From: Flavobacteriales bacterium | GTDB taxonomy: Bacteria; Bacteroidota; Bacteroidia; M30B66 | Reading direction: 5' to 3' | DNA: 64,000 nt | NCBI GenBank assembly: GCA_044369395.1 | Contig: JBIPLZ010000421.1 | Span: forward strand, 24,847 to 88,846 | Part shown: piece by piece, positions 15,501 through 54,387 of the stretch | Layout: each line of letters starts with the position of its first letter | Position numbering within the stretch: the stretch's first letter is position 1 | Translations under genes and position numbers: made by a program | Notes under the pieces: generated by a model | Seen by the model: only the letters and a program-made list of their open reading frames with translations | Databases searched by the model: none | Told to the model about the DNA's origin: nothing

Positions 15501-15898
15501 GGATCTTTTACGTTGTTTTTTGCAGCGAGTTGTTTACGAATAAGAATCTTTGCGTTTTCACGCATAGCAAAACTTGCAAGAATTTCAGCGTCAGATTTTT
15601 CACCACCACCACTACTACCACTTCTAGCAAAGTGACTAGCAAGACCGCCTCGTTGCCCACCGCCTTGATTGTCGTTACTAAACAGGGATCGAGATGCTCT
15701 CATTTGAAATGCAAGAGCGTGGAATTCTACTGCAATGTGCTTGGCAGAATCTTGAATAGATTCTAATTGAATACTAAAACGGTTTAAAGAAGCGGTCATT
15801 TGAGAGAACTGCTCAAATATTTTTTTGACCGCTTCTGCACCGGTGTAAGGTACTTGTGATAGTTTTGGACGACCGTGTTCTTGTCCTTGACCGATCAT
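6494..15898 (-). CDS. giant tape-measure-like virion protein (3134 aa) with an embedded staphylococcal-nuclease (SNase/thermonuclease) domain
   Basis: It sits after the tail-assembly-chaperone pair and before the distal tail genes. It is highly charged, K/E-rich and coiled-coil-like, with internal tandem repeats. The C-terminal ~500 aa have Gly/Ala-rich hydrophobic segments (GAAVLPAIAFFGALVSGVSLLINGFAFF...; AGAATAGAGAATAGAG). At roughly aa 1270-1400 (about nt 11410-11720) there is an SNase-like signature: DADTYDTGKGKLRLNKGDAPE...KIEAKVLVDSEGKPKLDKYQRLLGDILVDGESLTEKLAAEGHLHV. Confidence 0.6.
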   Translation of the reverse strand: MIGQGQEHGRPKLSQVPYTGAEAVKKIFEQFSQMTASLNRFSIQLESIQDSAKHIAVEFHALAFQMRASRSLFSNDNQGGGQRGGLASHFARSGSSGGGEKSDAEILASFAMRENAKILIRKQLAAKNNVKDPTLNDDEILADYVKMLKRKSEASTKFYEEEKAKREAVDSSGMTQDQRDHIEYLKKKAQWTKAFNEDPKVSSPKDAESEKKHLEYLKKKAQWTKSYNESKQVVAERNANEVKRNQENLAKYKAFLETKSELYEKFQDAKRIANEKKKEEKDVQRKQDFPMPGNVDAYKQANAVNTYKKEQTESAGALNNYVEYLVAKEIEYRAHQERLEAIRQTNKDNHKNDEKPLEPFNKRTYESFLDQPDSLAEDINKFGEHYQKPLRSYVNYLTEKENVTAAHKKAMAAIKNADLSPRQKRQKEKDDVAEKEYQEKIKGLSKEEIAKIEPPEENNWYLKKLEQLKNYYLERLGIEKWFKDAELALIAAGIDNKDNLFKTRRQKKQDARDSVYGVKDASATNTSAPVSTLTQSTQEALARGQKTLETENLVTKLIDANNDSDSNSDSNENLSSILLDLNNIGNLFKNKNVITIDAETVSPPTAPVNSENHAIEAQIVQLSMIMKDALGKNLVEPLNIFIKADETLDLNKDPKFKDFNETYLKEDDAGNTLTPENAAKRITDKIAEMLEKDPTATINRKGTYEDDLANANNDEIKNAMLKIVGNVDKRKNEIGSASYANVNTDYIIKQLIEIEKKHFKTSDLQTKLTKIALDQAKKREEKENRSGIVDSIKQQEASEDGKTIFTIEVQKEAFGIITEGTAHDASVDTEIQDQIFRALASQFQKLKSSITPPSENVSSIVKNLANDSGKTPDKNLISVVETVSSIIKKFYSGKDSSIQNINQKEGDAELRINKGNKVVTDASYVEGVKNLLKTISNEMGINIYKIFDKIKISRSESIKGKDGEYQGRVGTKGEGDNLKQSLTLAIPDAAILGNDAEARAKVIALIMEEAFIHGLSNKIPALFAEGADLAQARGELQGAYGAISNQKSGDLAGAFDSGKYLSSFEELLAAVLKGIAGHDVSGLKDQNLPAGDFKYSIVAAIKNSLSGPMLAAAIVPMLMASMAGAGTLEDERAAGFVNKNNGVEGSVIGDPRARENFFQKGIEDRRKDKSPNAAELSIYADRERKAEEAAKPSSAVEDIKQIRAEKEKEAARVAALKKQKEDAKAAQLAGPPPTAEETAALEEKNQKEKEEKDKKEQAWLAAGGLYSQGGILPLEPKPEDPQKNLDNIVKNVVDTIVAIPSAIEQSSKNNPPLLRSTNPNAPKVGIKGSTNVPPDSIISGSQAPFYSTAPTAKPTPALSLPTIPVNSKPTSTNKKPASIKEEKYVTFPMNVKNPLTSNLIKDADTYDTGKGKLRLNKGDAPEVAHGPGELDQPGGREAEDAARNILANAKKIEAKVLVDSEGKPKLDKYQRLLGDILVDGESLTEKLAAEGHLHVADIEGNEKPLSLMKGAARLKKGLFSKKSIDPSKWRKFSRAQKEAHIKDVEASGDIQTPNNTLNQPPSPAPTPSPMESEIATPEVSENPKEKPSSNFGRLIALALGTAGVAGATLFRVLNKKKKEKENNTPKDVAKSKPKVATAPPLSEDEIKEIDKAIAELEIELAPETTSSATAPKKNRFLDYRYSELKEQQEFREPRKGYNSDGSPNWQDFEIEDNANVDKEIERRDNFKPGIPGTLSKNKDNEEVYTGENGLQYLYQDGKIHTSFGVTGHADPTISITPKTPPIDLNPEPRPSIIKPVVPPEKPISLPTNEQSDEYSNFTEMIKHWGFQTLKDVLDEMKPSEEGYTLEEQEKRNTINSEIERRKNFKPGIPGTISKNINSDLVYIGENGSYYRYDENANEIDTRHAKSGDVDPDIAETPKIKPTDRNPLKPKNKNLKADLVNARIAFEKEKKLKDRAFLLRENQPPAEILAFENAEEELKNAQAAYDKSIENAAPVVEPEIVSEPTKEPARPSNKAAKFVPRKMGDGDLYGSAASQIQVPMELMQTPQVNAQLEKNHGAFNGMSAVDGLIGRSGGLNSHMILAALMGHSLSGDQAFKDKTSNFDPATVAYLLQKEVDNFTGADRGDLDKEVKPLNPTAVKRIDESGRGSLEQEQKKIEAYLKTMANPIFQKIARANLVIVQNQLNRLNDIKRSTAETTTEVKKDDDEPLIISEPSDATTEDAKDTKPEVTKNPDVTKEEKQEEKKEEATTKINAESKQAIPRFREEVPAGWAEVLAETLNRYSGNAYEDHDTIDVDSIVNAIPNTEETKEKKSKFRYDYEAMDSTGTEVKDSINASSEEEAQQKVKELGYALTKITKSNKPPVYEELENNKPEDDSKEKEFYYNIINPNKDVNDFTREKEGHEYASSEEEAFQQIQKKYPEYEIKYIENTADDKPSKVLPQAETSIGVMGAAFGAAVGVSFGTAAVGPIGGIIGSLIGGFLGKLGGGLLVNRFNTERAERFEEREEEKKHRQKERSKQKEDATDTPEIKEKRNEIEIKEAQKYDLENMKSPEDLEKELQAQKMSGAEISDADIDIAVEKQKKAIEASADAIEKLKQELQALTEILNDLIKNKPAVDPEAGSGRRPEHHFLGGFVGGKNSFPGKPKGLDQTPVWAQEGEYITAKKDVPYMMAALGAYKKRGVSHMARGGVVGGGSATITRPSGGSYSSGDIMGPFKDKLNDFVKNTRFGAFVSNLTEASAKIQSFSQSMSGMTANASPDTFATFTGSIKLLSGAVGMALIPVFLRASQIIQTWAREIMNGTGTAGRLFSMFSSLVNSVLDGKFLALGVGIALLGAAVLPAIAFFGALVSGVSLLINGFAFFRAALLASSLMLRRGAAVPPVSPVAAGAATATAGAGAATAGAGAATAGAAKAGASAATAGAASTTGAKTTGFLAKLLAGGGGAAMTGGILSGIVGGVSEGMENADIKSMSGGENVVRTGAQVAGAGGGALAGAMGGAWAGAALGSLVGPLGTAVGGAVGGLIGGALGSWGGSKIASGTSNLAFGDKRRNEKDANGKPLPANDSKQQLSMAYQSSKSQSSYSSVEEAYKKIQVSALGDDPMTAELKKMNEHGLINMLKELEKVNEGVRENKIPMGASS

Positions 15899-15907
15899 AA
15901 GGGCTCC

Positions 15908-16114
15908 TTACAATTTAGGGGAAGGCTCACTATTTTGTTTGTTCCAAAGTTTTTGAGTCTCTTCTTCTGAAAGACCTCTCCAATCTTTGTTAACTTTCCA
16001 AAATAGTTCTTTAGCCGATTGATATTGACCAACTGGTTCGTCTGCCGATTTTGGTCTAAAATACAAGTTTTTAACTTGATAGGGGGTGAGCTTACTTATC
16101 TGCTCAATACTCAA
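15908..16114 (-). CDS. tail assembly chaperone, -1-frame extension (GT-like C-terminal part)
   Basis: A 68-aa ORF is annotated from a TTG, but its frame is open upstream for at least about 50 more codons, overlapping the end of the 147-aa ORF in the -1 frame. Confidence 0.35.
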   Translation of the reverse strand: MSIEQISKLTPYQVKNLYFRPKSADEPVGQYQSAKELFWKVNKDWRGLSEEETQKLWNKQNSEPSPKL

Positions 16115-16158
16115 GTTATATGGGTCACGTAATAACGTCGCAAAGATCTCTGAGATAC

Positions 16159-16602
16159 TTATCCGGCGGCCTGGTTCTGAGCTGCCTCCGGACCACTCGG
16201 GTTTGGGTCGGTGTTCGCCTCTCCAACTTTTTCCATCATTTCTTCTAATCGTGTTTGAACAAGATCATCAATCGTATCAATTTCAATCTCAGGATGATTA
16301 GGAAGAAGACAAATATGAAGAATTTTTTTAAAGTGAGTAAGCGTTTGCATAGCTCTCATACAAGGAGCAGATCCAAATGCGTAATACCCTTCTGCAATAT
16401 CTTTTTGAGTTTGAGCAATTAACTCTGCGTACTCTGTTTGTGTTAAATACTGACGCATTCTTTTTGCAGTCTTAACCGCAGTGTCTTCTAAATACTTTTC
16501 AAAATCACCTTGAATTTTGTATGTCCAAGGAGAGCATGTATACTTTACACCGTTGTGCTCAAAGGTACTACCAAGCCCCAGTGCTTTAGAAATCTCAGCC
16601 AT
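16159..16602 (-). CDS. tail assembly chaperone (G-like, upstream frame)
   Basis: 147-aa ORF immediately upstream of the tape-measure-like gene, in the canonical position. The -1 frame is open across its 3' end and continues into the next ORF. Confidence 0.4.
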   Translation of the reverse strand: MAEISKALGLGSTFEHNGVKYTCSPWTYKIQGDFEKYLEDTAVKTAKRMRQYLTQTEYAELIAQTQKDIAEGYYAFGSAPCMRAMQTLTHFKKILHICLLPNHPEIEIDTIDDLVQTRLEEMMEKVGEANTDPNPSGPEAAQNQAAG

Positions 16603-20522: not shown

Positions 20523-21935
20523 CTACGCAATGTTGAGGTTGTCGCAAATTACAAATGATGCTTCATGACGAGGAGCTCCGTCACAATACATGATCCCTCG
20601 ATACCACGTTTGGTCGGTGGTAAACGGTGTATCACCTTGTGTACTGATTTGGAACTCGATAGCACCAGAAAGAGCAATCATATAATCGCTAAAGTCGCCA
20701 CCAAGGATATAGCTCAAGTTAGAAGAGCTACCCTTAGTTCTTGAACCGCTGATCTGGGTAGACTTGTAAACAGGGTTGCCATACAAGTTACCAGGAGTGG
20801 TTCGGCTGTAATCCATGTTCGTGTTTAGTTCACGGAACATGTTGAATACGAATGGACCCTTAGCGTCGTTAGCAACAACAGCATCAGACCTTCTGTTAGC
20901 AATTGCTGCGTAAAGAAGAGGACGCATAAGGAAGGATTTGAACTGTGCGTTCTGTTCTTCCACTTTCGCAATCATGTTTGCAATATCTTCTGGTTGAATG
21001 GTATCACCATTTGTTCCAGTTACCTTTGCAGTGTGACGGCTAATGTTTGCGTAGTTGATAAGACCTTTAGGTTCATTGCTTGAACCAGTTGCTTCCAACA
21101 ACGACTTGTCCAATCGAAGAGCAAGTACACGGCTGATATCCTCTCGCAAGAACATTTCAACCGAGACAGAGCTAAATCGGAAAAGTTCGTTTGGAACTTT
21201 GCACAAGATTCCGAGCTTCTTGGCTTGCAAGAGTACGTCACCAGTTGCAGGTGTTGAATCTTGAACTGCGTTGGATTCACCAACCCAGTAAGCTGTACCA
21301 GCGTTGGTTTGCCTTGGGAAAGTGATTCTGCCGTTTGGTGGCATAGCAATGGTGCGAGCACCAGCACTCATGAACACTTCGTTATTTCTAAGGAGTTCGA
21401 TAAGTTCGCCTTGGATTGGAGGGGCAACTAATGCACCGCCTTGACTTTCGTCAATCCACGACATAGCTTTTTGAACACCCCATTGTTTAGCACGAATGTT
21501 ACGAACTTCTTCACGGTCATAACCAGTAATGCCTGCGGTTACAATATCACGGATATCTTTAGCAAAGCCTTCTTCGCCGGGGATTTCAGCAATGTAATCG
21601 CTGCCAAAAGGAGCCATAATGGTGTTAGTGTGAGCTTTGTTGTAACCAAGACGGTCTACATAAAGCTTTTGAAGAGCTTGAGCGGTTTCCCATTCAACTC
21701 TTGCATTTTCGGGAGAGAGTTCGCCACGAAGAAGACCAAAAAGTTTTACGAAGCTATAGCCTCGCGAACTCATTGAGTTTTCACCTTTGCGAACTTGAGG
21801 AGCGTTAAGTACCGAGCTGTTCCTTGCGGACTTGCTGGTGCTTTCGATTTCACTCAGTTTGTTTTGAAACTTTGCCTGAGTTTCGGTAATGCTATTGATT
21901 GCATCAATAACAGGCTTAATGTTTTTCCCGGCCAT
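20523..21935 (-). CDS. major capsid protein, HK97 fold
   Basis: 470-aa ORF with characteristic HK97-family segments (GGALVAPPIQGELIELLRNNEVFMSAGARTIAMP; WYRGIMYCDG). It is flanked by the prohead protease and connector genes. Confidence 0.8.
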   Translation of the reverse strand: MAGKNIKPVIDAINSITETQAKFQNKLSEIESTSKSARNSSVLNAPQVRKGENSMSSRGYSFVKLFGLLRGELSPENARVEWETAQALQKLYVDRLGYNKAHTNTIMAPFGSDYIAEIPGEEGFAKDIRDIVTAGITGYDREEVRNIRAKQWGVQKAMSWIDESQGGALVAPPIQGELIELLRNNEVFMSAGARTIAMPPNGRITFPRQTNAGTAYWVGESNAVQDSTPATGDVLLQAKKLGILCKVPNELFRFSSVSVEMFLREDISRVLALRLDKSLLEATGSSNEPKGLINYANISRHTAKVTGTNGDTIQPEDIANMIAKVEEQNAQFKSFLMRPLLYAAIANRRSDAVVANDAKGPFVFNMFRELNTNMDYSRTTPGNLYGNPVYKSTQISGSRTKGSSSNLSYILGGDFSDYMIALSGAIEFQISTQGDTPFTTDQTWYRGIMYCDGAPRHEASFVICDNLNIA

Positions 21936-24287: not shown

Positions 24288-25628
24288 TTATCCTCTGTTG
24301 TCATTGGGCGATGATAAAGGTTGGCTAGAAGGAGGGTGTGTACCGCCCATAGGATTACTTGCAATGTTTACTGGAAGTATTGGGCTATCTCCCCAAGCAG
24401 TTGGGAATGGCTCTCTGCCACGCATAACACGAACTTCATTAGGAGTAATCGCACCACACATAAGATCGGTTTGAATTTGTTTTTCAGTAAGCTCTGGATC
24501 GTGCGGGGTAATGTCTTCCCACCAAACTTTTAAAGATTCATCATAACGATGAGCAATCTTTTCAGTAATTACTTGACCAAAGTATCGAAGAATAGGGTTA
24601 ATAGTTTGCTGCATAAATGCAGCTTGTGAAGCCATTACAGAGCCGTAGGTCATTTCTTTGTTAAGACCTGCTGCGGAAGCGGGTACACCAAACAAGGCTA
24701 AAATGTTATCTCGAATTTCTGTAGCGGTTTCACCAAAAAGCATTTCGTTAATCCCTAAAGACAAGGGGTTAACTGAAACTCCTGGAGGTAAAAACATTGG
24801 ACGGTTAGATCGAGTATCACCAGAGTAACGAGACATAAACTTAGCTTCAATACGGCGAAGATCTTCGTCACTAGGGTCTTGAAACTTTCCATCAAACTGT
24901 ACTGCAACAGTTGGAAACGTTCCGTTTTTATAAGAGTGCCAACGAGAGCGATTAATCATTTCAGCGGTATCGCCCCACTGTGCACCTGCCGTTAAAGGAG
25001 CGTAACCATCAATCTTTGAAATTGGGCTCTTATCTTTAAACACTACTATTTCTTCTATTGGAAGAAATTTCCTAAAGTAATTGCCTTCGATAGGACGAAT
25101 TTCATAGCCTTCGATAAGCTTGTCTTTGCCCACAATAGGCCACATCCAATGAGAAGGTACTACCCAGATTGCAGCAGGGAGACCAAGGTCGTTAAGAGGC
25201 ATCCACCAGTAAGCTATGCCAGTAAGGTGATGAAACATGATGGTTTCATACCAAAGGTCATAAGAGGTGTCGGGATCGTTAGGGTCTTTAAGGAGCCGAA
25301 GCAGGGGATGCTTGTTAGGTACTGGCTCAAGGTCTTCGTGAGAAAGCAAGGGAATAAGGGCTTTTTGTTTTAGAAAGTTATGACGGGGTGAGTTCATAGC
25401 GTGATGATAAGTCCACGAAACATTGGGTATTTGAGAAGCTACTTGTCTGGCAATTGCACGAATAGCGATGTAGATCCAATGTTTGAAGTTTCTAACCTGC
25501 TCAATGCGGGAATCTGTCCATGCTGAAACGTAAGGTAAAAAAGAAGGTCCGTAAGACAGCAACGTCGATAGATCCCTGTCTGAAGCTTGGTCAGGAGGGA
25601 GTCGTAATTTGCGTCTACGCTTTGCCAT
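24288..25628 (-). CDS. portal protein (HK97-type)
   Basis: 446-aa ORF immediately upstream of the protease. Its size and position in the portal-protease-capsid order support the call. Confidence 0.7.
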   Translation of the reverse strand: MAKRRRKLRLPPDQASDRDLSTLLSYGPSFLPYVSAWTDSRIEQVRNFKHWIYIAIRAIARQVASQIPNVSWTYHHAMNSPRHNFLKQKALIPLLSHEDLEPVPNKHPLLRLLKDPNDPDTSYDLWYETIMFHHLTGIAYWWMPLNDLGLPAAIWVVPSHWMWPIVGKDKLIEGYEIRPIEGNYFRKFLPIEEIVVFKDKSPISKIDGYAPLTAGAQWGDTAEMINRSRWHSYKNGTFPTVAVQFDGKFQDPSDEDLRRIEAKFMSRYSGDTRSNRPMFLPPGVSVNPLSLGINEMLFGETATEIRDNILALFGVPASAAGLNKEMTYGSVMASQAAFMQQTINPILRYFGQVITEKIAHRYDESLKVWWEDITPHDPELTEKQIQTDLMCGAITPNEVRVMRGREPFPTAWGDSPILPVNIASNPMGGTHPPSSQPLSSPNDNRG

Positions 25629-28382: not shown

Positions 28383-28564
28383 AAACATTTTAACAACTGC
28401 CATTCTGGCAGAAAACTTTATTAGCCCCCCGTATTAAAGGGGAGCCCCGCCCTATTTGTACTCCTGTTTGTGTGGATGATTTAACACCCCCTACCCCTAT
28501 GTGCGTTATGAGTATGCGTGTTGTGTGCTCAGTGGGGTGTGTTGAATATTTAAAGGAGTCTGAG

Positions 28565-29017
28565 ATGAAGAGTAATGTTATTTTGATTTTGGTTTTATCT
28601 TTCAACATAGCACTCGGCATTTTGGCTGTTCGATACATAAATGAATGTTCAAAAAATATGCCTGAGGTTTGCACTGTTGCTAGTGTTGTAGCTACTGCTG
28701 ATTGGAATGATCAATTTAATGCTCCCGGTTGGACAGTATTTAAAACTACAGAGGGTGAAACAGTATTAAAAATTCACGGAAGTTCGGATGGTTATGTATG
28801 GTTTTATCCTAACAACAGTAGTTGTCCTTTAACTTTAGTGCTTAAAGAGTTAAAAGTAAAAATCACAAAAATTATCTGTTGTCATCCAGCAGTAGTTAAA
28901 GAACGAAGTAATGTTGATGTATCTTTCTTTCAAGAGACTCATCGTTCTTTTGTTTATGCGACTCTTAATATTGTTGAGGGAGAGAATGTTCGGGTTTATA
29001 ACAAAAACCCTAATTAG
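28565..29017 (+). CDS. signal-anchored Cys-containing membrane protein
   Basis: Starts MKSNVILILVLSFNIALGILAV after AAGGAGT. It is the first gene of the repeated promoter-like cassette region. Confidence 0.5.
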   Translation: MKSNVILILVLSFNIALGILAVRYINECSKNMPEVCTVASVVATADWNDQFNAPGWTVFKTTEGETVLKIHGSSDGYVWFYPNNSSCPLTLVLKELKVKITKIICCHPAVVKERSNVDVSFFQETHRSFVYATLNIVEGENVRVYNKNPN

Positions 29018-29150
29018 CAGAGGACACTCCGAAAAGGGTGTAATGCACTACTTAATCTGATCTAGGTTAGGTAACGGTTCCAAGTCCGAGCATATATGGC
29101 TATCTCACTTTGAGGTAGCTGTTTTCGTTTCTAGATCAAGGAGTTTAGTT
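29018..29150 (+). promoter_or_regulatory. repeated intergenic cassette, copy A (post-stop hairpin, conserved AACGGTTCCAAGTCCG box, GCTGTTTT box, AAGGAGT RBS)
   Basis: About 75% identical to copy B at 29293-29419. Confidence 0.5.
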
Positions 29151-29294
29151 ATGGATAATAATATCGTTGGTCAAATTGCATACTTCACAGTTTGTTTTGC
29201 AGTTTTGGTGGTGCTGTTTACTCCTGTTAATGTCTGGTTGTTGGAAAAAATGTTTGCGGTATTAGACAAAGTTTTTATGACTCCAAAAAACTAG
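29151..29294 (+). CDS. small hydrophobic membrane protein (47 aa)
   Basis: MDNNIVGQIAYFTVCFAVLVVLFTPVNVWLLEKMFAVLDKVFMTPKN. Preceded by AAGGAGTTTAGTT-ATG. It is too short for the ORF track. It is flanked by the repeated ~130-bp elements. Confidence 0.45.
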   Translation: MDNNIVGQIAYFTVCFAVLVVLFTPVNVWLLEKMFAVLDKVFMTPKN

Positions 29295-29419
29295 CAGAGG
29301 ACACCTTCGGGTGTAATGCACTATGAAGGCTAGACTTCATAACGGTTCCAAGTCCGGCATATACAGTCATGCTCATGTTGAGTGTGGCTGTTTTTGTTTC
29401 TAGATTAAGGAGTTTTACG
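29293..29419 (+). promoter_or_regulatory. repeated intergenic cassette, copy B (UUCG-tetraloop hairpin GACACC-TTCG-GGTGTA)
   Basis: Shares GCAGAGGACAC, GGTGTAATGCACTA, AACGGTTCCAAGTCCG, GGCTGTTTTTGTTTCTAGAT and AAGGAGTT with copy A. Confidence 0.5.
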
Positions 29420-30034
29420 ATGGCTAATGTTAACTTTTGTGTTGTATGTGGTTCTGAAGTTCTTACCGGTGTTGATGCTGGTGAGGCTTTTGCTATTGGG
29501 TATTGCGAGTGTATCGCAGTGCCAGAAGTTGATGTTTTTGTTTTGGAGGATACTGATATGCCTTGTTGTGTTCCAGATAACAAAACATTCATTTTTTGTA
29601 GCGATTGCGGACATGAGGGAAGTAATCCTTGCAACTGTAAGGGAGTTACAATAGAAGACGAAGAATTCATCTACGTCTATGAAGAAGCAGAGGTTCTTGC
29701 TGCTTCTGTTGGTTGTCAATCATGTAATCAAGCTGCTTGTAAAGGGCCTAATGAACGTGGATACTGTCTTGAGTATTACGACTACGAAAACGAAAAAGCA
29801 CTTCGGAAGTTTCAAGGATTAGAGGAGGATGACCCAGAACCACAGGTAGAAAAAGTTCGCTCCTTTTATGAAGAAGCGTTTTTAATGTTGGCAATCTTGA
29901 CTAGTTTCTTTCGTCTTCTGTATGCCATCTCAACAGGGAAAGTTAATGATCCTTCCTTGGTCATTGCGTGGTATGCGTTTTGCGGTTACTTGATCTTGTC
30001 TTATACCGCAGTCATTCTGTGGTTTGTACTTTAA
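29420..30034 (+). CDS. Cys-rich zinc-binding protein with C-terminal transmembrane anchor
   Basis: MANVNFCVVCGSE...CCVPDNKTFIFCSDCGHEGSNPCNCKG plus C-terminal hydrophobic helices. Preceded by AAGGAGTTTTACG-ATG. Confidence 0.5.
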   Translation: MANVNFCVVCGSEVLTGVDAGEAFAIGYCECIAVPEVDVFVLEDTDMPCCVPDNKTFIFCSDCGHEGSNPCNCKGVTIEDEEFIYVYEEAEVLAASVGCQSCNQAACKGPNERGYCLEYYDYENEKALRKFQGLEEDDPEPQVEKVRSFYEEAFLMLAILTSFFRLLYAISTGKVNDPSLVIAWYAFCGYLILSYTAVILWFVL

Positions 30035-33552: not shown

Positions 33553-33561
33553 GGTGTGGGG
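33553..33561 (+). promoter_or_regulatory. GGTGTGGGG intergenic motif, copy 1 (CGGTAGTGGTGTGGGGA)
   Basis: Exact 9-mer. The 17-mer is shared with copy 2. Confidence 0.4.
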
Positions 33562-35131: not shown

Positions 35132-35139
35132 ACCAAAAG

Positions 35140-35171
35140 CCTCTACCCGAAAGGGTAGGGGTTTCTTTTTT
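35140..35171 (+). terminator. rho-independent terminator
   Basis: CCTCTACCC-GAAA-GGGTAGGGG then TTTCTTTTTT. Confidence 0.7.
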
Positions 35172-35268
35172 AGAAAACCCTGTCCTCGCTACGCTCGCTC
35201 TGGATTCGTACGCAGTCGTTCCTCCTGCGGGCAATTGGCAAACGCTAGTCGCTGTTACCCCCTGTCTT

Positions 35269-35277
35269 GGTGTGGGG
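35269..35277 (+). promoter_or_regulatory. GGTGTGGGG motif, copy 3 (TTGGTGTGGGGTTTC)
   Basis: Exact 9-mer in a long non-coding region. Confidence 0.35.
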
Positions 35278-35456
35278 TTTCCAACCTTTGGCAAACCACC
35301 ACGGACTTCTAGCGGAAAAAGAAGACAGTATAAAAGGATCTCAATGTCCTTAATGTAACAAGATGGTGGGGAAAAGGTTATGGGGAACTAACTTCATTTC
35401 CTAAATTACCTACTTTATCACATCTTTTACGCTGTTTTTCCGTGTGTGGCGGTTTC

Positions 35457-35465
35457 GGTGTGGGG
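35457..35465 (+). promoter_or_regulatory. GGTGTGGGG motif, copy 4 (TCGGTGTGGGGCTT), next to a GCTGTTTTT box
   Basis: Exact 9-mer, about 60 nt upstream of the 35523 start. Confidence 0.35.
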
Positions 35466-35522
35466 CTTTACGTCGATGCGTACTGCCCTTTTTCGTTTCC
35501 AGTTCTTGTAAAGGAGGTAGTT

Positions 35523-35711
35523 ATGCCACGTAGAAAGTGCCCCGTCAGAGATGTCAGGGTGCAGAGCACAGTGTTGATTGATGTCAGCACCAGTGAGCGA
35601 TTCAAGGTACTCACAAGTGATGAGTACGCATTATTTCTGGAAGGACTTGTTGTCCAATCAGAAGGTCAGAATCAAATGAAAACTACAAAGGAGATTTGCA
35701 ATGTTATTTAG
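35523..35711 (+). CDS. small basic hypothetical protein
   Basis: MPRRKCPVRDVRVQ... after AAAGGAGGTAGTT-ATG. The upstream part of the tracked ORF is probably non-coding. Confidence 0.4.
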   Translation: MPRRKCPVRDVRVQSTVLIDVSTSERFKVLTSDEYALFLEGLVVQSEGQNQMKTTKEICNVI

Positions 35712-36207
35712 TTCCAACAACAGCGTTAACTTTCGTCAAAAACTGGTAGTCCTCGTAGGCTTCCAAGTATGTCTTATACTAATCGCCAATGTGTTTTGTG
35801 CAAACGAAACAGCGGAGGCAATGGTATATGAACTGCAAATGGATGAAATGGCAGACTACTACGAAGGAAAAGAACGAGTCAAAAATAGACTCGCAGAACT
35901 TGATCTACAACGATGCTGCTCAGGCAGAGTTGCAGAAGAAAAAGAGTGCAAAGTAGAACACTGCCACTGCATGGGTATGCCAAATGCTGAGTGCCAAGAG
36001 ATCTGGTGTGACAACCCAGAGATCATAACTGATGAGATATGGTTCATGGATCAAATGGACATCTCACGGATTAATATTGATCGTAAATACAAGGAAGGAA
36101 AATACCTTCTCTTTGTAGATAAGATCGGAAGGGTATTCAGATTTGATTTGTCCTTAGAATCAGAAGAGTATAAACCCCAAAAAATAAAGGAGTTCATACG
36201 TGATTAG
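35701..36207 (+). CDS. secreted/membrane Cys-rich protein
   Basis: N-terminal hydrophobic signal (LVVLVGFQVCLILIANVFCANETAEA) and Cys cluster (CCSGRV...CKVEHCHCMGMPNAECQEIWCD). Confidence 0.45.
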   Translation: MLFSSNNSVNFRQKLVVLVGFQVCLILIANVFCANETAEAMVYELQMDEMADYYEGKERVKNRLAELDLQRCCSGRVAEEKECKVEHCHCMGMPNAECQEIWCDNPEIITDEIWFMDQMDISRINIDRKYKEGKYLLFVDKIGRVFRFDLSLESEEYKPQKIKEFIRD

Positions 36208-36297
36208 TACAACACAAGAAGCGTTCCAATTCTTTGCAATCATACTGTCAGGTTTCATACTCTTTGGAACCTGCATACTATTAGGATATAAATTACT

Positions 36298-36636
36298 ATG
36301 CCTAATCTAAAAGCAAAGTTATTTCTACTACTCACCGGAGGCATACTATTTGTCTCCGGTTGCAGTAAACCCGATGAAAACCTAACTGATTCTTGCTTAT
36401 ACATAACACAAAGAGTTCCAAGCACCAAAGAAGTTTGGGATCAGTTAGAAGAATCTGCAAAGATGGAAAGAAAAATCCGTCGTGCAAACGTAAAAGTAAA
36501 ACAACTCTGGCCTATGCACCCCACAGATATATCCGAATCAAACATACCAACGTTTCTTAGAGATCCGTACAAATGGTATCTATGTAGAGATAACGAGTGG
36601 GAAGTCTATGCCATATCAACCAACAAAGGAAACTAA
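36298..36636 (+). CDS. lipoprotein (lipobox FVSGC)
   Basis: MPNLKAKLFLLLTGGILFVSGCSKPDEN is a classical signal peptidase II signal. Confidence 0.55.
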   Translation: MPNLKAKLFLLLTGGILFVSGCSKPDENLTDSCLYITQRVPSTKEVWDQLEESAKMERKIRRANVKVKQLWPMHPTDISESNIPTFLRDPYKWYLCRDNEWEVYAISTNKGN

Positions 36637-36638
36637 CT

Positions 36639-36809
36639 ATGTATAAAGTTCTAAGCTTGCTTATGATTCCAATCACGTTCTTTACCTTCTTCGGCATAGC
36701 AGACTTCTACGTAGCTAACAACTACACAGAAGGTTCTATGATGGCAGCGTTACTATCTACATTCACTCTAAACTTATGCACACTAGGGTACACCCTTAGT
36801 AGATGCTAA
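36639..36809 (+). CDS. small membrane protein
   Basis: MYKVLSLLMIPITFFTFFGIADFYV... with an RBS-like AAAGGAAA upstream. Confidence 0.4.
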   Translation: MYKVLSLLMIPITFFTFFGIADFYVANNYTEGSMMAALLSTFTLNLCTLGYTLSRC

Positions 36810-36821
36810 TAAGGAGGCTTC

Positions 36822-37097
36822 ATGAGTTTTACCTTAAAAGCAGTGCTAATAACCGCAGCAGTGTCTCTATATTTTTATAACTTCCCTGTCAAAAAATATA
36901 CGGAAGACCCTGTTAGATTAATGTTGATACCTTACAACGTAATGCCAGATCCTAAACATAGGACGGATTCAATCTTAATGGCAGACGAAACAGGTAAGAA
37001 GTATCTACTGAGTTTTAGAGGAATCATAATGGACTGCGAACATTACCTCACACCGCTACGAAACTTAACAAATAAATTAGACCCCTACTACGAATAA
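36822..37097 (+). CDS. small membrane protein
   Basis: MSFTLKAVLITAAVSLYFYNF N-terminal TM helix, after AAGGAGG. Confidence 0.4.
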   Translation: MSFTLKAVLITAAVSLYFYNFPVKKYTEDPVRLMLIPYNVMPDPKHRTDSILMADETGKKYLLSFRGIIMDCEHYLTPLRNLTNKLDPYYE

Positions 37098-37136
37098 GAC
37101 TCCTATCAACCATTAACCCTGCATCACCCTTGAGGT

Positions 37137-37145
37137 GGTGTGGGG
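37137..37145 (+). promoter_or_regulatory. GGTGTGGGG motif, copy 5 (GGTGGTGTGGGGTTTCTTTTT)
   Basis: Exact 9-mer followed by a T-run. It may double as a terminator 3' arm. Confidence 0.35.
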
Positions 37146-37184
37146 TTTCTTTTTGCCCACGGTTTTCCATTTTCGTTTTTCCCC

Positions 37185-37286: not shown

Positions 37287-37508
37287 ATGAGCGTAAGGAT
37301 TCGCATCATCGAAACCGTGCCAACGAAGGCACATAAACGATCACCGCTCTTAGCAAAACTAAGACGCAAGCTGATCAAACTTCAACACCTAAGAGATCAA
37401 GGAACACCAGATCGAATAGGCGAAGAAGACGTTATACAAACCTTAGAACGTAAACCCAAAGTTGCCCGACAATTTTGGCAACAAGGAGGATACCAATGGG
37501 CTGGATAG
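37287..37508 (+). CDS. small basic hypothetical protein
   Basis: RBS AAAGGAG. Preceded by GT-rich direct repeats. Confidence 0.4.
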   Translation: MSVRIRIIETVPTKAHKRSPLLAKLRRKLIKLQHLRDQGTPDRIGEEDVIQTLERKPKVARQFWQQGGYQWAG

Positions 37509-37690
37509 AAATCCTAGCAATCGGACTCATACCCGGAAGCATCAAAGTTTCCCGTGAGTTCGGCAAATTAGACGTGAGCATTACTCCCGCAGTATTTATG
37601 CTCATCGAATTTGTATGCAAAAAAGCAAAAGAACTTTTGACTTCACCGTCGAAGCCAGAAGAACCCACCGAAGTTAAGACGGTTTCTTAA
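37496..37690 (+). CDS. small membrane protein
   Basis: MGWIEILAIGLIPGS... after CAAGGAGG. Confidence 0.35.
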   Translation: MGWIEILAIGLIPGSIKVSREFGKLDVSITPAVFMLIEFVCKKAKELLTSPSKPEEPTEVKTVS

Positions 37691-37719: not shown

Positions 37720-38145
37720 ATGGATATCAAAGAAGTAATCGTAAAGTCTAGCCTCAAGCAACGAATCACCGCAGCACTTGTAGCAGGTGCTTTAGGTGGT
37801 GGCTATTACTACAACGCTCACGCAACCGTGTCTCCCCAGCAAGCCGTAACAAGCGGAATGCACAAGGAAAACACAGTTAAGATGACCGTACTTTCCGGCA
37901 AAGATTTCATCGATGGTAAGACTAAAGCACCTAAATCTACAGTGCTTAATGACACAGCAGACTACAAAGCTGCAAGTCTTACTATATACATCGATAGAAC
38001 TCGCTGCCCTAACTTAAATTACGCTAGCCTTCAAGGCAAAACCATTAGCGTAAAAGGATTTGTACAAGAGTGGAAAGGTAAGGACGGCAAATCCAAACCC
38101 GAAATCAAAGTAACTGATCCTTCCCAAATCAGCGTAGTGAATTAA
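37720..38145 (+). CDS. membrane-anchored OB-fold (BOF/YgiW-like) protein
   Basis: N-terminal TM segment, then GKTISVKGFVQEWKGKDGKSKPEIKVTDPSQISVV, which resembles the BOF OB-fold signature. Confidence 0.4.
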   Translation: MDIKEVIVKSSLKQRITAALVAGALGGGYYYNAHATVSPQQAVTSGMHKENTVKMTVLSGKDFIDGKTKAPKSTVLNDTADYKAASLTIYIDRTRCPNLNYASLQGKTISVKGFVQEWKGKDGKSKPEIKVTDPSQISVVN

Positions 38146-47638: not shown

Positions 47639-47911
47639 ATGACATCTACAACCCCTGCACCTACTAAAACCAAAACAAAAAATAAACCAGAAGATGTTCT
47701 TCAAGCTCTTATGGATTTACCAAAGGTTAAAGAAGACCTTTTTGGAAACCTTCCGCTTATGAAAGAAAGTGTTGTCAATGTTTTTGATGACAAGTGGAGA
47801 ATTAATCTTTGGGTTAGCATTCATAATCCAGTAGTTCCAAACGCGGGTCGTATCTTAAAAAGTTATTTTGTTAAATTTGGTAATGGCAGGTTGGAAATTT
47901 TGGAGGATTGA
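47639..47911 (+). CDS. hypothetical protein
   Basis: 90-aa ORF preceded by a duplicated 18-bp element containing the RBS. Confidence 0.4.
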   Translation: MTSTTPAPTKTKTKNKPEDVLQALMDLPKVKEDLFGNLPLMKESVVNVFDDKWRINLWVSIHNPVVPNAGRILKSYFVKFGNGRLEILED

Positions 47912-47913
47912 GT

Positions 47914-48057
47914 ATGAAGATGTTGGCTATTTTGTTGATCGGTTGTGCAGGGTGTACAAAAACATTGGAGTCAAATGCCAACACTGATGTATATCCTCAT
48001 GACCCTAACGTAATTCAAAAGGTTAACCTTGGTATGTCCTTTAAAACGCAATGGTAA
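47914..48057 (+). CDS. small lipoprotein (47 aa)
   Basis: MKMLAILLIGCAGCTK has an LIGC lipobox. RBS GGAGG. Not in the ORF track because it is short. Confidence 0.4.
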   Translation: MKMLAILLIGCAGCTKTLESNANTDVYPHDPNVIQKVNLGMSFKTQW

Positions 48058-48079: not shown

Positions 48080-48187
48080 ATGTACACATTTATAGCCGGA
48101 GTATTGTTTGGAATATCGTTAGTGATTTACATGGCTAAAGAAAATGCAAAGCATAGTTTTGAACAGAGCTTTGGTCGAAGAAAATAA
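48080..48187 (+). CDS. small single-TM protein (35 aa)
   Basis: MYTFIAGVLFGISLVIYMAKEN... after GGAG. Confidence 0.3.
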   Translation: MYTFIAGVLFGISLVIYMAKENAKHSFEQSFGRRK

Positions 48188-48285
48188 AGGAAGCATAAGG
48201 CCAGCACTAAGAAGCAGGCAGTTCTTTTTCGATGTGGACTGTCTCTTGAGATCCGGTGCTGGTTTTATTACAAGGGAGGAAACCC

Positions 48286-48750
48286 ATGCCACACGTATCG
48301 TTAAGATTAATGCGACAAGATGATATTCCCGCAGTATCTGATATAGGAGCTAGATGTTATAACTCATCCTACTACGAGAGCGACGAATCATTTTTATCTA
48401 AGTGGTGTGGGTATCCTAAAGGTTGTTATGTTGTAGCGGTCAGGGGAAAAGTAATTGCTTATGCGATTACATTCCCCTATTTCAAAGAAGAAGTATTCCC
48501 TTTAAATAGTATGTACACTCCTTTCTTTGCACCTACAGGACATTACTTCCACGACATCAGCGTTTGCCCTGGCTATCGTAAACAAGGATATGCAGGGATG
48601 CTAATAAACAAAGTATGGAATAGCTCTCCTCTTCCCAAGTCCTTGGTAGCTGTAAACAACAGTCAAGAGTTCTGGGAAAGGTATGGGTTTGTGCTAACCC
48701 GCTATGTCAAGTACGGTAAAAGTAAAGCCTCTTACATGCAGTGTTTGTAA
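48286..48750 (+). CDS. GNAT family N-acetyltransferase
   Basis: RKQGYAGMLI (acetyl-CoA binding motif A) and FWERYGF. Confidence 0.55.
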   Translation: MPHVSLRLMRQDDIPAVSDIGARCYNSSYYESDESFLSKWCGYPKGCYVVAVRGKVIAYAITFPYFKEEVFPLNSMYTPFFAPTGHYFHDISVCPGYRKQGYAGMLINKVWNSSPLPKSLVAVNNSQEFWERYGFVLTRYVKYGKSKASYMQCL

Positions 48751-48806
48751 GAAAAACGTATACATATTTCTGACAAAAAAAACTTCTTAAGAAAGGAGGC
48801 ACGGAG

Positions 48807-49871
48807 ATGCCCTATTCAGAACTTCCAACTTCTTATACTCTTTACAAGCTATGGATAGAAGAAAAGAAAAAAGAAGGTAAAGCTAATCATTTAAAAAAGT
48901 TACAAGCCTGTTGTTCCAACCCTATTGATTTTTATACATTTTTTATTAAAGAGTTTACAGGTATGGACTCTATTATGGCTTCTCGTTGTTATGCAGAAAA
49001 AGCATGGTATAAAGTTGGATGTCCATACTATAACATTCATCCAAATTTTATATCCAAGTTATGCAACTGCAACCTATCAAAAATACCAGCTTCCCTTTTT
49101 AAAATGCCACACGAGTTAGAATCTATTCATGTAAGATTTAAAGATTTTCATTCTGAATTCGCATACAGTAGTTCAAAAACAAATAATCTTCGATGGGCAA
49201 CTTCTATATTGGTTTATGAAATACCTGAAAATGAATATAGTAAACGAACAATATCTATTAGTTTAGATATGTTAATGAATCAAAACGACATAGGTAAAAG
49301 TTTAAATATTTATGAACTAAGAACACAAAAAAAAGACGATAGATCTTTATGCATATTTAATATTGTACTTGAAAAAAATCAAAGTTTACAAGACGCTATC
49401 AAAATAGCTATTAGTAAACAGTGTGATAAAAAAGGAATGTCGCTGCCAAGTGATTCTAAGTATGAGATATTAATTAAAAACGTATTAAGCCTTTGCAGCA
49501 CTATTGGATTTCTTTCTGACAATCCTACTATTTGTGAGCCAGATATTCTTGCTGCGGATAGACACCTAATTGAAAAGTCTAACCCTCAAGAACTAGAAGC
49601 TCTGCACCAGAAAGCAAAGAACAAAAGAAAATACGGTTGGAACATTGGTACTGATCGTATGTTTGTAGGACCGCAACCTTTTCAGTTAGCAAACAAATCC
49701 CAAGCTGCTGAAGGAAAAGAACGGGAGTATGCACACATTAGAGCAGGGCATCCTCACGCTGTTCGGTATGGCAAAGGCAAAGAGCTAGTAAAGATTATGT
49801 GGTTTGTACCACTTACTGTAAGACCAGACCTTCCTTTTAAGATAGAACAACAGACCCAAACCACTTTGTAA
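48807..49871 (+). CDS. hypothetical protein (354 aa, AT-rich)
   Basis: Long ORF with RBS AAGGAGG and low GC. No recognisable motif. Confidence 0.45.
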   Translation: MPYSELPTSYTLYKLWIEEKKKEGKANHLKKLQACCSNPIDFYTFFIKEFTGMDSIMASRCYAEKAWYKVGCPYYNIHPNFISKLCNCNLSKIPASLFKMPHELESIHVRFKDFHSEFAYSSSKTNNLRWATSILVYEIPENEYSKRTISISLDMLMNQNDIGKSLNIYELRTQKKDDRSLCIFNIVLEKNQSLQDAIKIAISKQCDKKGMSLPSDSKYEILIKNVLSLCSTIGFLSDNPTICEPDILAADRHLIEKSNPQELEALHQKAKNKRKYGWNIGTDRMFVGPQPFQLANKSQAAEGKEREYAHIRAGHPHAVRYGKGKELVKIMWFVPLTVRPDLPFKIEQQTQTTL

Positions 49872-51254: not shown

Positions 51255-51533
51255 GTGGGACATTTTATTTTTGTTGTACTTCATATTTTGGCTTTCTTGT
51301 GCGGGTTCTTTGGCTTGTTTATTACTATACCACTTCATCTTATATACGCAGTTATGCTTACTCAAGCTAACAACTCGAGAACAAATGTTGTTAAAAAATC
51401 AGAACCGCAAAATATGGGTAGGTTGATAGGATTGTGTATCCGTGTATTAATGATTTTCATTGTTGGAATTGTAGTGTTTGTTTTGTTCTTAGGACTTTAT
51501 TACAGAATAAATGGTCGTGCTCCTTGGCATTAA
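51255..51533 (+). CDS. small membrane protein (GTG start)
   Basis: Three hydrophobic helices. Follows the plus-strand terminator. Confidence 0.3.
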   Translation: MGHFIFVVLHILAFLCGFFGLFITIPLHLIYAVMLTQANNSRTNVVKKSEPQNMGRLIGLCIRVLMIFIVGIVVFVLFLGLYYRINGRAPWH

Positions 51534-52845: not shown

Positions 52846-54387
52846 TTAAAAGTATTCGCCTTCAAGAAAGAGTTTCTTTTTGGGTCTAACACGGAGAGCT
52901 TCTAAGCAGGCCATCCCTAAAGAGATAGCACGGTCATCATGTCGATTAGGTAGATGATCAATCCTAAAACCATAAGACATTACTTTGGTAATGAGTTCGC
53001 AAAACTCATCAACTAAAGTGTGCTTTCCACCGCCTTGTATAAAGATTGTTCCGCAATCGGGATACCAGAAAAGCTTTTTATTAACGACTAAAGATCTTAC
53101 TGTTTGAGCCATCTCATAGTTAGACTTGCCACCGCGAGCTTCAAACTTATGAACAGGAAGCGTTCCTGTAAACTTCTGAAACGTGGATTCCATTTGGTAA
53201 GGGTCAATTACTAAAGAGGTAAGTTCATACTTAGATCGAATGTCATCTATCCAGCGTTCAACGGCTTCAATCTTAACAGGGTTTTCTCGAGAACCCTGCA
53301 TAACGTCCATGCGATCTACATGAAGGGTGTCATCTTCATTGCGGTGTATAAGGGTGCATACAGTTCGATCACGTACTGGACCGTAGTCAATTGAGGCAAT
53401 ATAGGAGACTCCGCTTTGTCCAATAACGTGGGGTGTATAGTCATTAGATACACACTCATCAACTTCTTTACGTGTAAGAAAGTTGCAACCATCAGACGGA
53501 TCAACCCACTCATTATCAAATAAACGGCGAGCTAACTGAGGCGGTACGGTTCGACGAAGGTCATCCATAGCTGCGGAGTCCATCCATGAAGCTAGCTTGC
53601 CCGGTGCTTCGTAAACAAACCAGCGGGGGGAAGACTTAAAAGTTTCAAGCGTGTCATGTTGCCATGTGTACTTAAGGCCTGCGTTGGTGATAACTATAAG
53701 GACTGAGCCTGGTCGTTTCTCTCTACCGGAAAGAAGAGCGTTCCATAGGTCTGGTTTATGCCAATGGGTTAGCTCATCCACAATGAGAAGGTCACCACGA
53801 ATACCGTGAGAAGAAGCAGCGTCTGCTGCAAGGATCTCAATAGAGGAGCCGTTAATGCCGTGGATCTTCCAATTGCGAAAGTCCAGTCGTTTAGCAAGCC
53901 AAGGATTAAGGCGGGATTCATCTTGCATGGCTTTAGCTAATAAGCCTGCTTGCTCTTTGTCGGCTGCTGCAACGTATCCGGTAAAGGAGCGGGTGTTAAA
54001 GGCTAAGGCCCAGTTGATAAGCCTTGCTATGAGAGAAGATTTGTCGTGACCTTTGGGAAGAGTAAGCCAAAAGTTTCGGTGGGCTGCATAGTCTGGTCGT
54101 ATGTTCGCTACGTGCTCTATTGCAGGGAGGATCTTGTTAACAAGAGCCCATTGCCATGGTTCTGCAATTTCTCGAAACAAAGTAGGATCTGGACGTGAGT
54201 CAATGATGACGTGATTGAGATAACGAAAACAAGAAGTTGAAGAAGCTGACTCTGCTAAGAGGTATGCTTGTTGCAATCCTCTACGCAGCTCAAATGTCGT
54301 CTTCGAGTTTTGTATTGCTCGTATGTCGTTTGATGAGTTCTTTTGCATCTTTGTCGGGGAGTTGATAGGAAAGGATTTCTGTTTCAT
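52846..54387 (-). CDS. terL: terminase large subunit
   Basis: P-loop-like LPKGHDKSS, Walker B LLIVDE, and a C-terminal RNaseH-like nuclease segment (ASIDYG...DHLPNRHDDRAISLGMA). Confidence 0.75.
   Translation of the reverse strand: MKQKSFPINSPTKMQKNSSNDIRAIQNSKTTFELRRGLQQAYLLAESASSTSCFRYLNHVIIDSRPDPTLFREIAEPWQWALVNKILPAIEHVANIRPDYAAHRNFWLTLPKGHDKSSLIARLINWALAFNTRSFTGYVAAADKEQAGLLAKAMQDESRLNPWLAKRLDFRNWKIHGINGSSIEILAADAASSHGIRGDLLIVDELTHWHKPDLWNALLSGREKRPGSVLIVITNAGLKYTWQHDTLETFKSSPRWFVYEAPGKLASWMDSAAMDDLRRTVPPQLARRLFDNEWVDPSDGCNFLTRKEVDECVSNDYTPHVIGQSGVSYIASIDYGPVRDRTVCTLIHRNEDDTLHVDRMDVMQGSRENPVKIEAVERWIDDIRSKYELTSLVIDPYQMESTFQKFTGTLPVHKFEARGGKSNYEMAQTVRSLVVNKKLFWYPDCGTIFIQGGGKHTLVDEFCELITKVMSYGFRIDHLPNRHDDRAISLGMACLEALRVRPKKKLFLEGEYF

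Follow-up and report, generated by a model that had tools for sequence, protein, structure and literature searches.

The 64-kb stretch of DNA analysed here (the window, to which all positions refer unless a contig is named) is part of the genome, about 95 kb long, of an uncultured tailed phage. Positions 35523-37097 form a single operon between two intrinsic terminators. Its six genes, p62, p168, p36, lpp112, p56 and p91, encode one cytoplasmic and five envelope proteins (Table 1), and each is preceded at the proper spacing by a Shine-Dalgarno (SD) site of the AAGGAGG type. The initial annotation had described the locus as a cluster of lipoprotein and small membrane-protein genes with candidate superinfection-exclusion or envelope-targeting functions. 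All of the open reading frames (ORFs) that it listed exist where it placed them, and their products are envelope-targeted by sequence features; p62, which is cytoplasmic, and p36 had been missed, and the locus is larger. The relatives compared were six fetched contigs (L011, L012, L013, L014, L027 and L029), and L028 was added for a second mini-cluster described below.

Table 1. Features of the operon, its variable slot in related contigs, the second mini-cluster and structural genes of the phage
Feature	Position	Strand	Details
Intrinsic terminator, left operon boundary	35137-35164	+	12-bp stem (6 GC pairs) then T-run; ends upstream unit
Non-coding leader, ~360 nt	35165-35522	+	GGTGTGGGG(T/C)TT repeats at 35269 and 35457
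p62, small cytoplasmic protein, first operon gene	35523-35711	+	SD AAGGAGG 7 nt upstream; no hydrophobic segment
p168, predicted bitopic inner-membrane protein, 168 aa	35701-36207	+	Hydropathy; 13 homologous clusters
p36, 36-aa transmembrane (TM) peptide	36200-36310	+	AAGGAG SD; window and L013 only
lpp112, lipoprotein, 112 aa by name	36298-36636	+	Lipobox VSGC, Cys22
p56, two-TM hairpin peptide	36639-36809	+	Two hydrophobic segments
p91, N-terminally TM-anchored protein	36822-37097	+	Slot of the 124/128-aa domain paralogue in L029 and L011
Intrinsic terminator, right operon boundary	37115-37147	+	14-bp stem then T-run
Genes after p168, window			p36, lpp112, p56, p91
Genes after p168, L013			p36, lpp, p56
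Genes after p168, L014			lpp, p56
Genes after p168, L029			lpp, p56, 124-aa TM-anchored protein
Genes after p168, L011			128-aa TM-anchored protein only
Genes after p168, L027			109-aa signal-peptide protein (no Cys), p56-like
Genes after p168, L012			YpsA-like cytoplasmic protein, p56-like
p90, conserved soluble protein	47639-47911	+	No TM segment
lpp47, 47-aa putative lipoprotein	47914-48057	+	LIGCAGC; mature part ~33-36 aa
p35, 35-aa TM peptide	48080-48187	+	Basic C-terminus; conserved in L027, other genes instead in L028
Giant tail-module protein, 3134 aa	6494-15898	-	Several internal hydrophobic segments; sole Pfam signal a weak T2SSF_N match
HK97-type major capsid protein	20523-21935	-	Structural block
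Portal	24288-25628	-	Structural block
TerL	52846-54387	-	

The central member of the operon is p168, which combines a basic N-terminus, a single N-terminal hydrophobic segment (residues 13-37) and nine Cys residues. In a word-indexed search of 5.8 billion proteins, its homologues formed 13 clusters with 41-90% identity, all on related phage contigs. The predicted layout of p168 runs from an N-in TM anchor through an acidic helical stalk and an invariant R-C-C motif to a variable linker and a C-terminal domain of about 50 amino acids (aa) with the signature 'WFM-P-DI...KYLLF-D'. Because the h-region is about 20 aa long, no AXA or other signal peptidase I site is conserved, and the AlphaFold2 model contains a continuous helix (residues 11-75), p168 fits a signal-anchored (type II) membrane protein with a periplasmic C-terminus better than a cleaved secreted protein. 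The model, which adds a small C-terminal beta unit, is of low confidence, with a predicted local distance difference test (pLDDT) value of 54. Of the signal-peptide, Cys-rich protein proposed in the initial annotation, the ORF, the hydrophobic segment and the nine Cys stand, and cleaved secretion is less likely. Moreover, most of its Cys richness stems from a lineage-specific 21-aa insertion, CKVEHCHCMGMPNAECQEIWC (residues 83-103; 35947-36009), which carries C83, C88, C90, C98 and C103; only the pair C72-C73 is invariant. The insertion lies in the periplasmic linker, is limited to the window and two close clusters (P0005 and P0006), and could form a disulfide-knotted or metal-binding loop.

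The product of lpp112 begins with an n-region (MPNLKAK), an h-region (LFLLLTGGILF) and a signal peptidase II lipobox, VSG-C22. The S-G-C residues and those preceding them are invariant in five of five family members, and the assignment as a lipoprotein, made earlier in the same terms, is convincing at the level of the motif. From the lipid Cys onward the sequence reads C-S-K-P-D-E. Two further Cys are shared by part of the family (Cys33 in four of five members, Cys96 in two of five), which leaves no conserved intramolecular disulfide. The word-indexed search returned four clusters for lpp112, all on related phage contigs, and a HMMER profile of the family recovered only its own cluster among 1.84 billion representatives.

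Comparison of the two families with hhalign aligned residues 61-107 of lpp112 with residues 104-149 of p168 (87% probability, E 4e-6). The shared motif is (L/I)W(F/P)M-x-P-x-D-I-x3-N...K(Y/W)-L-L-F-x-D...V-(F/Y). The alignment score of 39.2 lies about 10 standard deviations above a column-shuffle null (mean 11.6, standard deviation 2.7, maximum 24.3), and it was reached by none of 200 shuffles. Proteins from the relatives also matched the p168 family, namely the 128-aa protein of L011 (94%), the 109-aa protein of L027 (93%; 75% with the lpp112 family) and the 124-aa protein of L029 (95%). As judged from these alignments, lpp112 and p168 are paralogous in their C-terminal parts, a relation that the initial annotation had not seen; lpp112 is not an independent Llp-like gene, and some relatives do without it. 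By the same profiles, a single lineage-specific domain of about 50 residues, previously undescribed, is displayed on four kinds of anchor: the long-stalk TM helix of p168, the lipid of lpp112, a short TM anchor and a signal peptide. A profile of this domain gave nothing significant against Pfam or the PDB. For the proteins of the locus, searches of Pfam, PHROGs and NCBIfam returned nothing meaningful, with no Pfam or PHROG family for lpp112 at E<=0.1 and, at the same threshold, no PADLOC match for any of the ten proteins searched. NCBIfam matches to a ferredoxin reductase, an antiporter subunit and others fell far below the cut-offs and were taken as noise. What is new here is the reuse of one orphan domain family on membrane anchors that can be exchanged, in a phage whose probable host phylum is little studied; nothing in it contradicts current understanding.

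A p168 homologue is present in all six related contigs, and the genes that follow it vary (Table 1). The additional copy of the domain sits on a lipoprotein in the window, L013, L014 and L029, on a TM helix in L011 and L029, and behind a signal peptide in L027. L029 holds three copies in its operon, the maximum, and L012 has no second copy; the slot gene of the latter (6449-6940 of that contig) encodes a YpsA/SLOG-like protein (Pfam PF06908; phrog_289, E 1.5e-16). The lipoprotein gene overlaps the p168 homologue in L014 and L029 and lies 90 nt away from it, with p36 in between, in the window and L013. Across these sequences the conserved core is p62, p168 and usually p56. The first two are 49-64% identical to their counterparts, versus 77-92% for the downstream block.

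The remaining genes differ in how widely they are kept. p62 was found in every relative whose sequence extends to its position: L011, L012 and L014 have it at 57-64% identity, the L029 copy is almost identical, and L027, at the end where the contig is cut, retains part of a clearly diverged version. In a comparison of the window with L013, p36 shows six synonymous and two non-synonymous changes together with a GTG-to-ATG change of the start codon, and on this sequence comparison it is a real gene. p56, present in all sampled relatives but L011, had been described as a single-TM peptide; it has two hydrophobic segments and is, hence, a hairpin. p91, which had been described in the same way, has an N-terminal hydrophobic segment. 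With the 124-aa and 128-aa genes that take its slot in L029 and L011, p91 has in common the ribosome-binding site (RBS), the first 25 or so codons (the TM anchor) and the terminator. A BLASTP match of the N-terminus (E 4e-5) and the DNA alignment agree on this shared start region. Membership of p91 in the shared-domain family was considered and set aside, as hhalign does not support it and the sequence past the anchor has diverged beyond statistical recognition.

The boundaries of the operon are conserved as well. The left terminator is kept in L011 (5114-5141) and L014 (472-497), and the right one is near-identical in L011 (6862-6894) and L029 and present in L014 (2062-2079). The motif GGTGTGGGG(T/C)TT occurs on the plus strand at 33553, 34518, 35269, 35457, 37137, 37189 and 37220; it is confined to the intergenic gaps of four consecutive short transcription units between 33.5 and 37.3 kb and is conserved in relatives. 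For GGTKTGGGGYTT, five exact copies stand against about 0.03 expected, the expectation having been computed for a near-identical pattern. A dedicated promoter was considered for these repeats and rejected in that at least the copy at 37137 is the 3' arm of a terminator; the remaining copies may form weak hairpins or act in regulation or as a promoter.

About 20 of the 83 crude ORFs of the window have a hydrophobic segment, so the clustering of such ORFs alone is only moderately unusual. The strong evidence for the locus lies rather in conservation, purifying selection and paralogy. Taken jointly, the operon, its phage, its gene content, the p168 core, the recurring domain and the orphan status carry high confidence.

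The next conserved unit downstream consists of p64 (37496-37690), with two hydrophobic segments, and p141 (37720-38145), which starts with a signal-like segment and is beta-rich towards its C-terminus. Identity to the counterparts in L011, L012 and L014 is 77-86% for both. With these two envelope proteins, the envelope-protein-rich region reaches about 38.1 kb.

The phage to which the operon belongs is known only from metagenomes. Proteins of the window have exact copies on many contigs of 83-95 kb in JGI, ENA and Logan assemblies, and the group is widespread in lake metagenomes. Among cultured phages, megablast with 20 kb of the window found no match, and tblastn with the portal, PolA and the major capsid protein found only unrelated phages at less than 30% identity, which gives no host signal. 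Scans of IMG/VR with lpp112 and a 354-aa neighbour of the second mini-cluster were empty, which indicates that the group is absent from that database, and a prophage scan of genomes with the p168 profile also gave no match. The minus-strand structural genes include a protease-like protein. The 3134-aa ORF probably encodes a giant tape-measure-like protein, and a tail of very great length would follow from this. PolA, a class II ribonucleotide reductase and a DUF3987 primase all lie beyond 57 kb.

Insight into host and lifestyle comes from a metagenome relative, L015, whose tail module is 42-91% identical in tblastx comparison (72% in a protein of 761/770 aa). On the 3' side of its tail genes, L015 carries a tyrosine integrase (Pfam 6e-16; phrog_1, 3.5e-38) and a degenerate tRNA-like attP (integrase/attP region, 14669-16305 of that contig). 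The 28-nt core of this attP was matched 11 times among 185,579 species representatives, all 11 in metagenome-assembled genomes (MAGs) of Planctomycetota (loci L016-L026) and always in tRNA-Lys(CTT), with 49 nt 100% identical between attP and the tRNA gene. In two of the MAG contigs, L020 (93% over 297 nt) and L017, the similarity continues beyond the tRNA into phage DNA, and these look like prophage junctions. This integrase and the attP identity make it probable that the phages of the group are temperate and infect freshwater Planctomycetota. Planctomycete phages have been predicted earlier from lake metagenomes (PMC6802176). A Bacteroidota host, suggested by the C-S-K-P-D-E sequence of lpp112, was also considered and rejected, given how strong the SD sites are and that the attP matches Planctomycetota. 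Tandem 12-nt repeats, TGGGTGGCCGTT, flank the L015 attP core on both sides (15917-15955 and 16281-16305) and are candidate arm-type integrase binding sites.

After its tail genes, L015 also has a region (11953-14153) with small TM ORFs of 46, 57 and 90 aa, a signal-plus-C-terminal-TM protein and a 273-aa TM-anchored protein with a papain-like Cys...His pattern. By architecture only, this region is a candidate for an unconventional lysis cassette. The 273-aa protein was examined as an endolysin and found no support from Pfam, PHROG, the PDB or phage tblastn.

Among the functional readings, the leading guess is that the operon modifies the host envelope so that the same phage or its relatives can no longer adsorb or deliver their DNA, which would amount to superinfection exclusion in a broad sense. 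This is proposed tentatively, as a possibility that falls short of an expectation. Known exclusion proteins, such as T5 Llp, Cor, T4 Imm and Sp, HK97 gp15 and TP-J34 Ltp, are typically small orphan membrane proteins or lipoproteins. The points counted in favour are the small orphan envelope products, the variation of the slot and of the periplasmic linker between close relatives, the faster divergence of p62 and p168, the probably diderm host, and the better-placed candidate lysis region of L015. A temperate group, a variable slot and dedicated terminators are compatible with exclusion and are not evidence for it. In the predicted topology, p168 would sit N-in in the cytoplasmic membrane and hold its domain in the periplasm on a helical stalk with a Cys-Cys pair, and lpp112 would show the same domain from a lipid anchor. 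By the Lol rule of E. coli, Ser at position +2 would send lpp112 to the outer membrane, a rule that may not hold for Planctomycetota. The domain copies might share a single binding partner in the host envelope, or they might pair among themselves, and the diversifying anchors and linker insertions might reflect an arms race.

Several observations weigh against exclusion. In the PHROG, Pfam, PADLOC and NCBIfam searches, the proteins showed no similarity to known exclusion proteins. Unlike llp and cor, lpp112 lies in a plus-strand block of non-structural genes; the closest structural gene, that for the portal, is about 10 kb away, and the distal tail genes are about 30 kb away. The upstream genes p949 and p181 diverge just as fast, so that fast divergence does not single out the cluster. 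All relatives keep p62 and p168, which would also fit a core function in the infection cycle. In addition, no sigma-70-like site was found in the leader (35165-35522) and the operon promoter was not located; the AlphaFold2 models of lpp112 (pLDDT 45) and p168 are unusable; and lifestyle and host derive from L015 through its 72% identical tail protein, not from the genome of the window itself.

The comparison with known exclusion systems is similarly mixed. The initial annotation had likened the lipoproteins to T5 Llp and T4 Sp-like proteins and had pictured a block of the phage's own receptor or injection route; no match to Llp, Cor, Sp/Imm or any PHROG, Pfam or PADLOC family bears this out, and the context does not suit an Llp-like blocker, as lpp112 neither adjoins receptor-binding or tail genes nor has a conserved disulfide. 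Like T5 Llp and Cor, lpp112 is a small phage lipoprotein with a classical lipobox, presumably periplasm-facing, orphan-like and restricted to its phage lineage. The two sets have no sequence similarity, however, and llp adjoins the gene for the receptor-binding protein pb5 on its downstream side (PMC9586334). Llp also has a Cys11-Cys58 disulfide that lpp112 lacks. Conversely, lpp112 differs from Llp and Cor in its paralogy with an inner-membrane protein encoded next to it and in having non-lipidated replacements in relatives. The morons of temperate phages (lambda bor and lom, HK97 gp15, TP-J34 ltp) resemble the operon in their bounding terminators, variable cargo, envelope products and presence in phages that, here probably, are temperate, but p62, p168 and p56 are core rather than accessory genes, and no promoter belonging to the unit was located. 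T4 Imm, Sp and RI likewise are small signal-anchored or TM envelope proteins encoded among non-structural genes, yet they differ from the operon products in domain organisation and share no sequence similarity with them in PHROGs. In kind, the operon is like known small phage proteins that act on the envelope; because the defining features were looked for and are lacking, it does not belong to the Llp/Cor, spanin or Imm/Sp families or to any defence family.

A different core envelope function is somewhat doubtful as an account of the operon. It could concern the timing of lysis, through antiholin-like periplasmic sensors of the T4 RI kind, the remodelling of cell division or peptidoglycan, or periplasmic counter-defence, with p168 essential and its paralogues acting as modulators. 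The retention of p62, p168 and p56 across relatives down to about 40% identity fits such a role, as do the envelope proteins p64 and p141 in the following conserved unit and the YpsA/SLOG-like protein in the slot of L012. In Bacillus, the YpsA family is linked to inhibition of cell division. Nevertheless, the proteins show no homology to antiholins, holins, peptidoglycan enzymes or defence and anti-defence families, and the proposal is too unspecific for sequence-based testing.

Spanin-like lysis, in which p168 would be the i-spanin, lpp112 a separated or overlapped o-spanin joined to it across the periplasm through the shared domains so as to disrupt the outer membrane at lysis, and p56 and p36 holin-like partners, is unlikely, although it deserves serious consideration. 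The gene order does recall two-component spanins such as lambda Rz/Rz1 and T4 PseT.3/PseT.2: an N-terminal transmembrane-domain protein is followed by an adjacent lipobox gene, overlapping in L014 and L029, small peptides with one or two TM segments adjoin, and p168 and lpp112 together reach about 280 aa, near the spanin range. The invariant periplasmic C72-C73 of p168 fits too, given that 507 of 528 two-component spanins carry at least one periplasmic Cys (PMC6139136). Furthermore, spanins are structurally very diverse, separated o-spanins are often beta in character, and many i-spanins have no coiled coils (PMC6139136). The lipoprotein, however, does not follow p168 in its conservation: in L011 and L027 its place is taken by paralogues that carry no lipid, and L012 lacks any paralogue there, which weakens the spanin reading because a two-component spanin requires an outer-membrane subunit. 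Unlike spanins, the two proteins are homologous to each other, have neither a proline-rich region nor a long coiled coil, and show no spanin match in PHROG or Pfam. To our knowledge, spanins with homologous i- and o-subunits have not been described.

Genomic context bears on the spanin reading from both sides. In the roughly 84 kb surveyed of the 95-kb genome, no endolysin, holin or spanin was recognisable by Pfam or PHROG. This leaves the role of a spanin vacant elsewhere in the surveyed sequence; it also means that neither nearby, nor in those 84 kb, nor in L015 was an endolysin or holin family recognised, and that the pair lies outside any lysis cassette recognisable in that sequence. The operon and the structural genes are on opposite strands, and the neighbours of the operon are non-structural (methylase, HNH and anti-defence-like genes); the region after the tail genes of L015 is a better-placed lysis candidate. 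A very unlikely but more specific arrangement is that p168 and lpp112 pair through the 50-residue domain as a trans-periplasm tether of homologous subunits, serving either as a spanin-like membrane-fusion device of a new class or as a novel exclusion mechanism based on an envelope clamp. If such a tether were real, the interchangeable lipid, TM-helix and signal-peptide anchors would represent a device rewired in nature, and phages of Planctomycetota would offer a new way to build a trans-envelope device.

Superinfection exclusion and outer-membrane lysis are, as far as known, mainly brought about by small membrane proteins and lipoproteins of phages, with examples drawn almost entirely from coliphages. 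We know of no phage-envelope system characterised in Planctomycetota, a phylum with an atypical envelope. The locus offers a well-delimited set of envelope genes in a widespread freshwater phage with a probable planctomycete host, as well as an undescribed domain family that can be traced across anchor types. Even without pairing of the domains, it would provide a well-defined set of candidates with which to begin functional work on how phages and the envelope interact in that phylum. In addition, the tRNA-Lys attP and the integrase give a probable host and lifestyle to a group of 95-kb phages with no cultured relative, and p36 and lpp47 are two small genes overlooked by automated gene calling.

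The p90-lpp47 pair and, where present, p35 make up the second mini-cluster, a separate and more conserved unit with a putative envelope role. The stop codon of p90 lies 2 nt before the start of lpp47 in the window, L027 and L028, and the two genes are presumably translationally coupled. The initial annotation had proposed lpp47 and p35 as genes overlooked by the ORF track, and comparison with relatives shows them to be real genes that gene callers mostly miss. lpp47 is 68-72% identical in L027 and L028, whereas p90 is only 53-60% identical; between the window and L027, it has 22 synonymous-only versus 13 amino-acid-changing codons, and its in-frame identity of 72% compares with 32-34% in the other frames. 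p35, for its part, is conserved in L027. Both Cys of LIGCAGC are invariant in three of three sequences, and lipidation of lpp47 is probable, although less secure than that of lpp112 because the signal peptide is unusually short (10-13 aa). The sole database signal of the mini-cluster is a sub-threshold match of lpp47 to phrog_812, 'Rz-like spanin' (E 0.007), which probably reflects the signal peptide and lipobox. That lpp47 is a minimal o-spanin or a small lytic lipoprotein resembling colicin lysis proteins, with p35 as a holin- or antiholin-like peptide, is quite unlikely: the phrog_812 match, the strong conservation and a mature size near that of lambda Rz1 and bacteriocin release proteins would suit it, but the match is below significance, Pfam shows no match to the Lysis_col or entericidin families, no i-spanin adjoins (p90 has no TM segment and p35 no periplasmic domain), and the neighbours are GNAT and AcrVA2-like genes.

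Directly 3' of lpp47 and p35 (48256-49871) lie a GNAT acetyltransferase gene and the gene for the 354-aa protein, which has a weak AcrVA2-like Pfam match; genes resembling P22 NinX, Y8K6 and DUF1281_C are found nearby. These surroundings suggest a region of accessory or anti-defence genes. A 92-aa ORF (51255-51533, plus strand) closes the plus-strand block beside PhoH and TerL; it has two long hydrophobic segments and no family match, and only its architecture recalls a holin. Another small membrane-protein cluster is formed by 28472-29017 and two adjacent ORFs linked by a 57-nt direct repeat (29115-29171 and 29384-29440, 77% identity) that spans the RBS and start codon of each. The first of these ORFs encodes a 47-aa TM peptide (29151-29294); the second begins at an alternative in-frame ATG at 29420 within ORF 29369-30034, which encodes 221 aa with two C-terminal hydrophobic segments.

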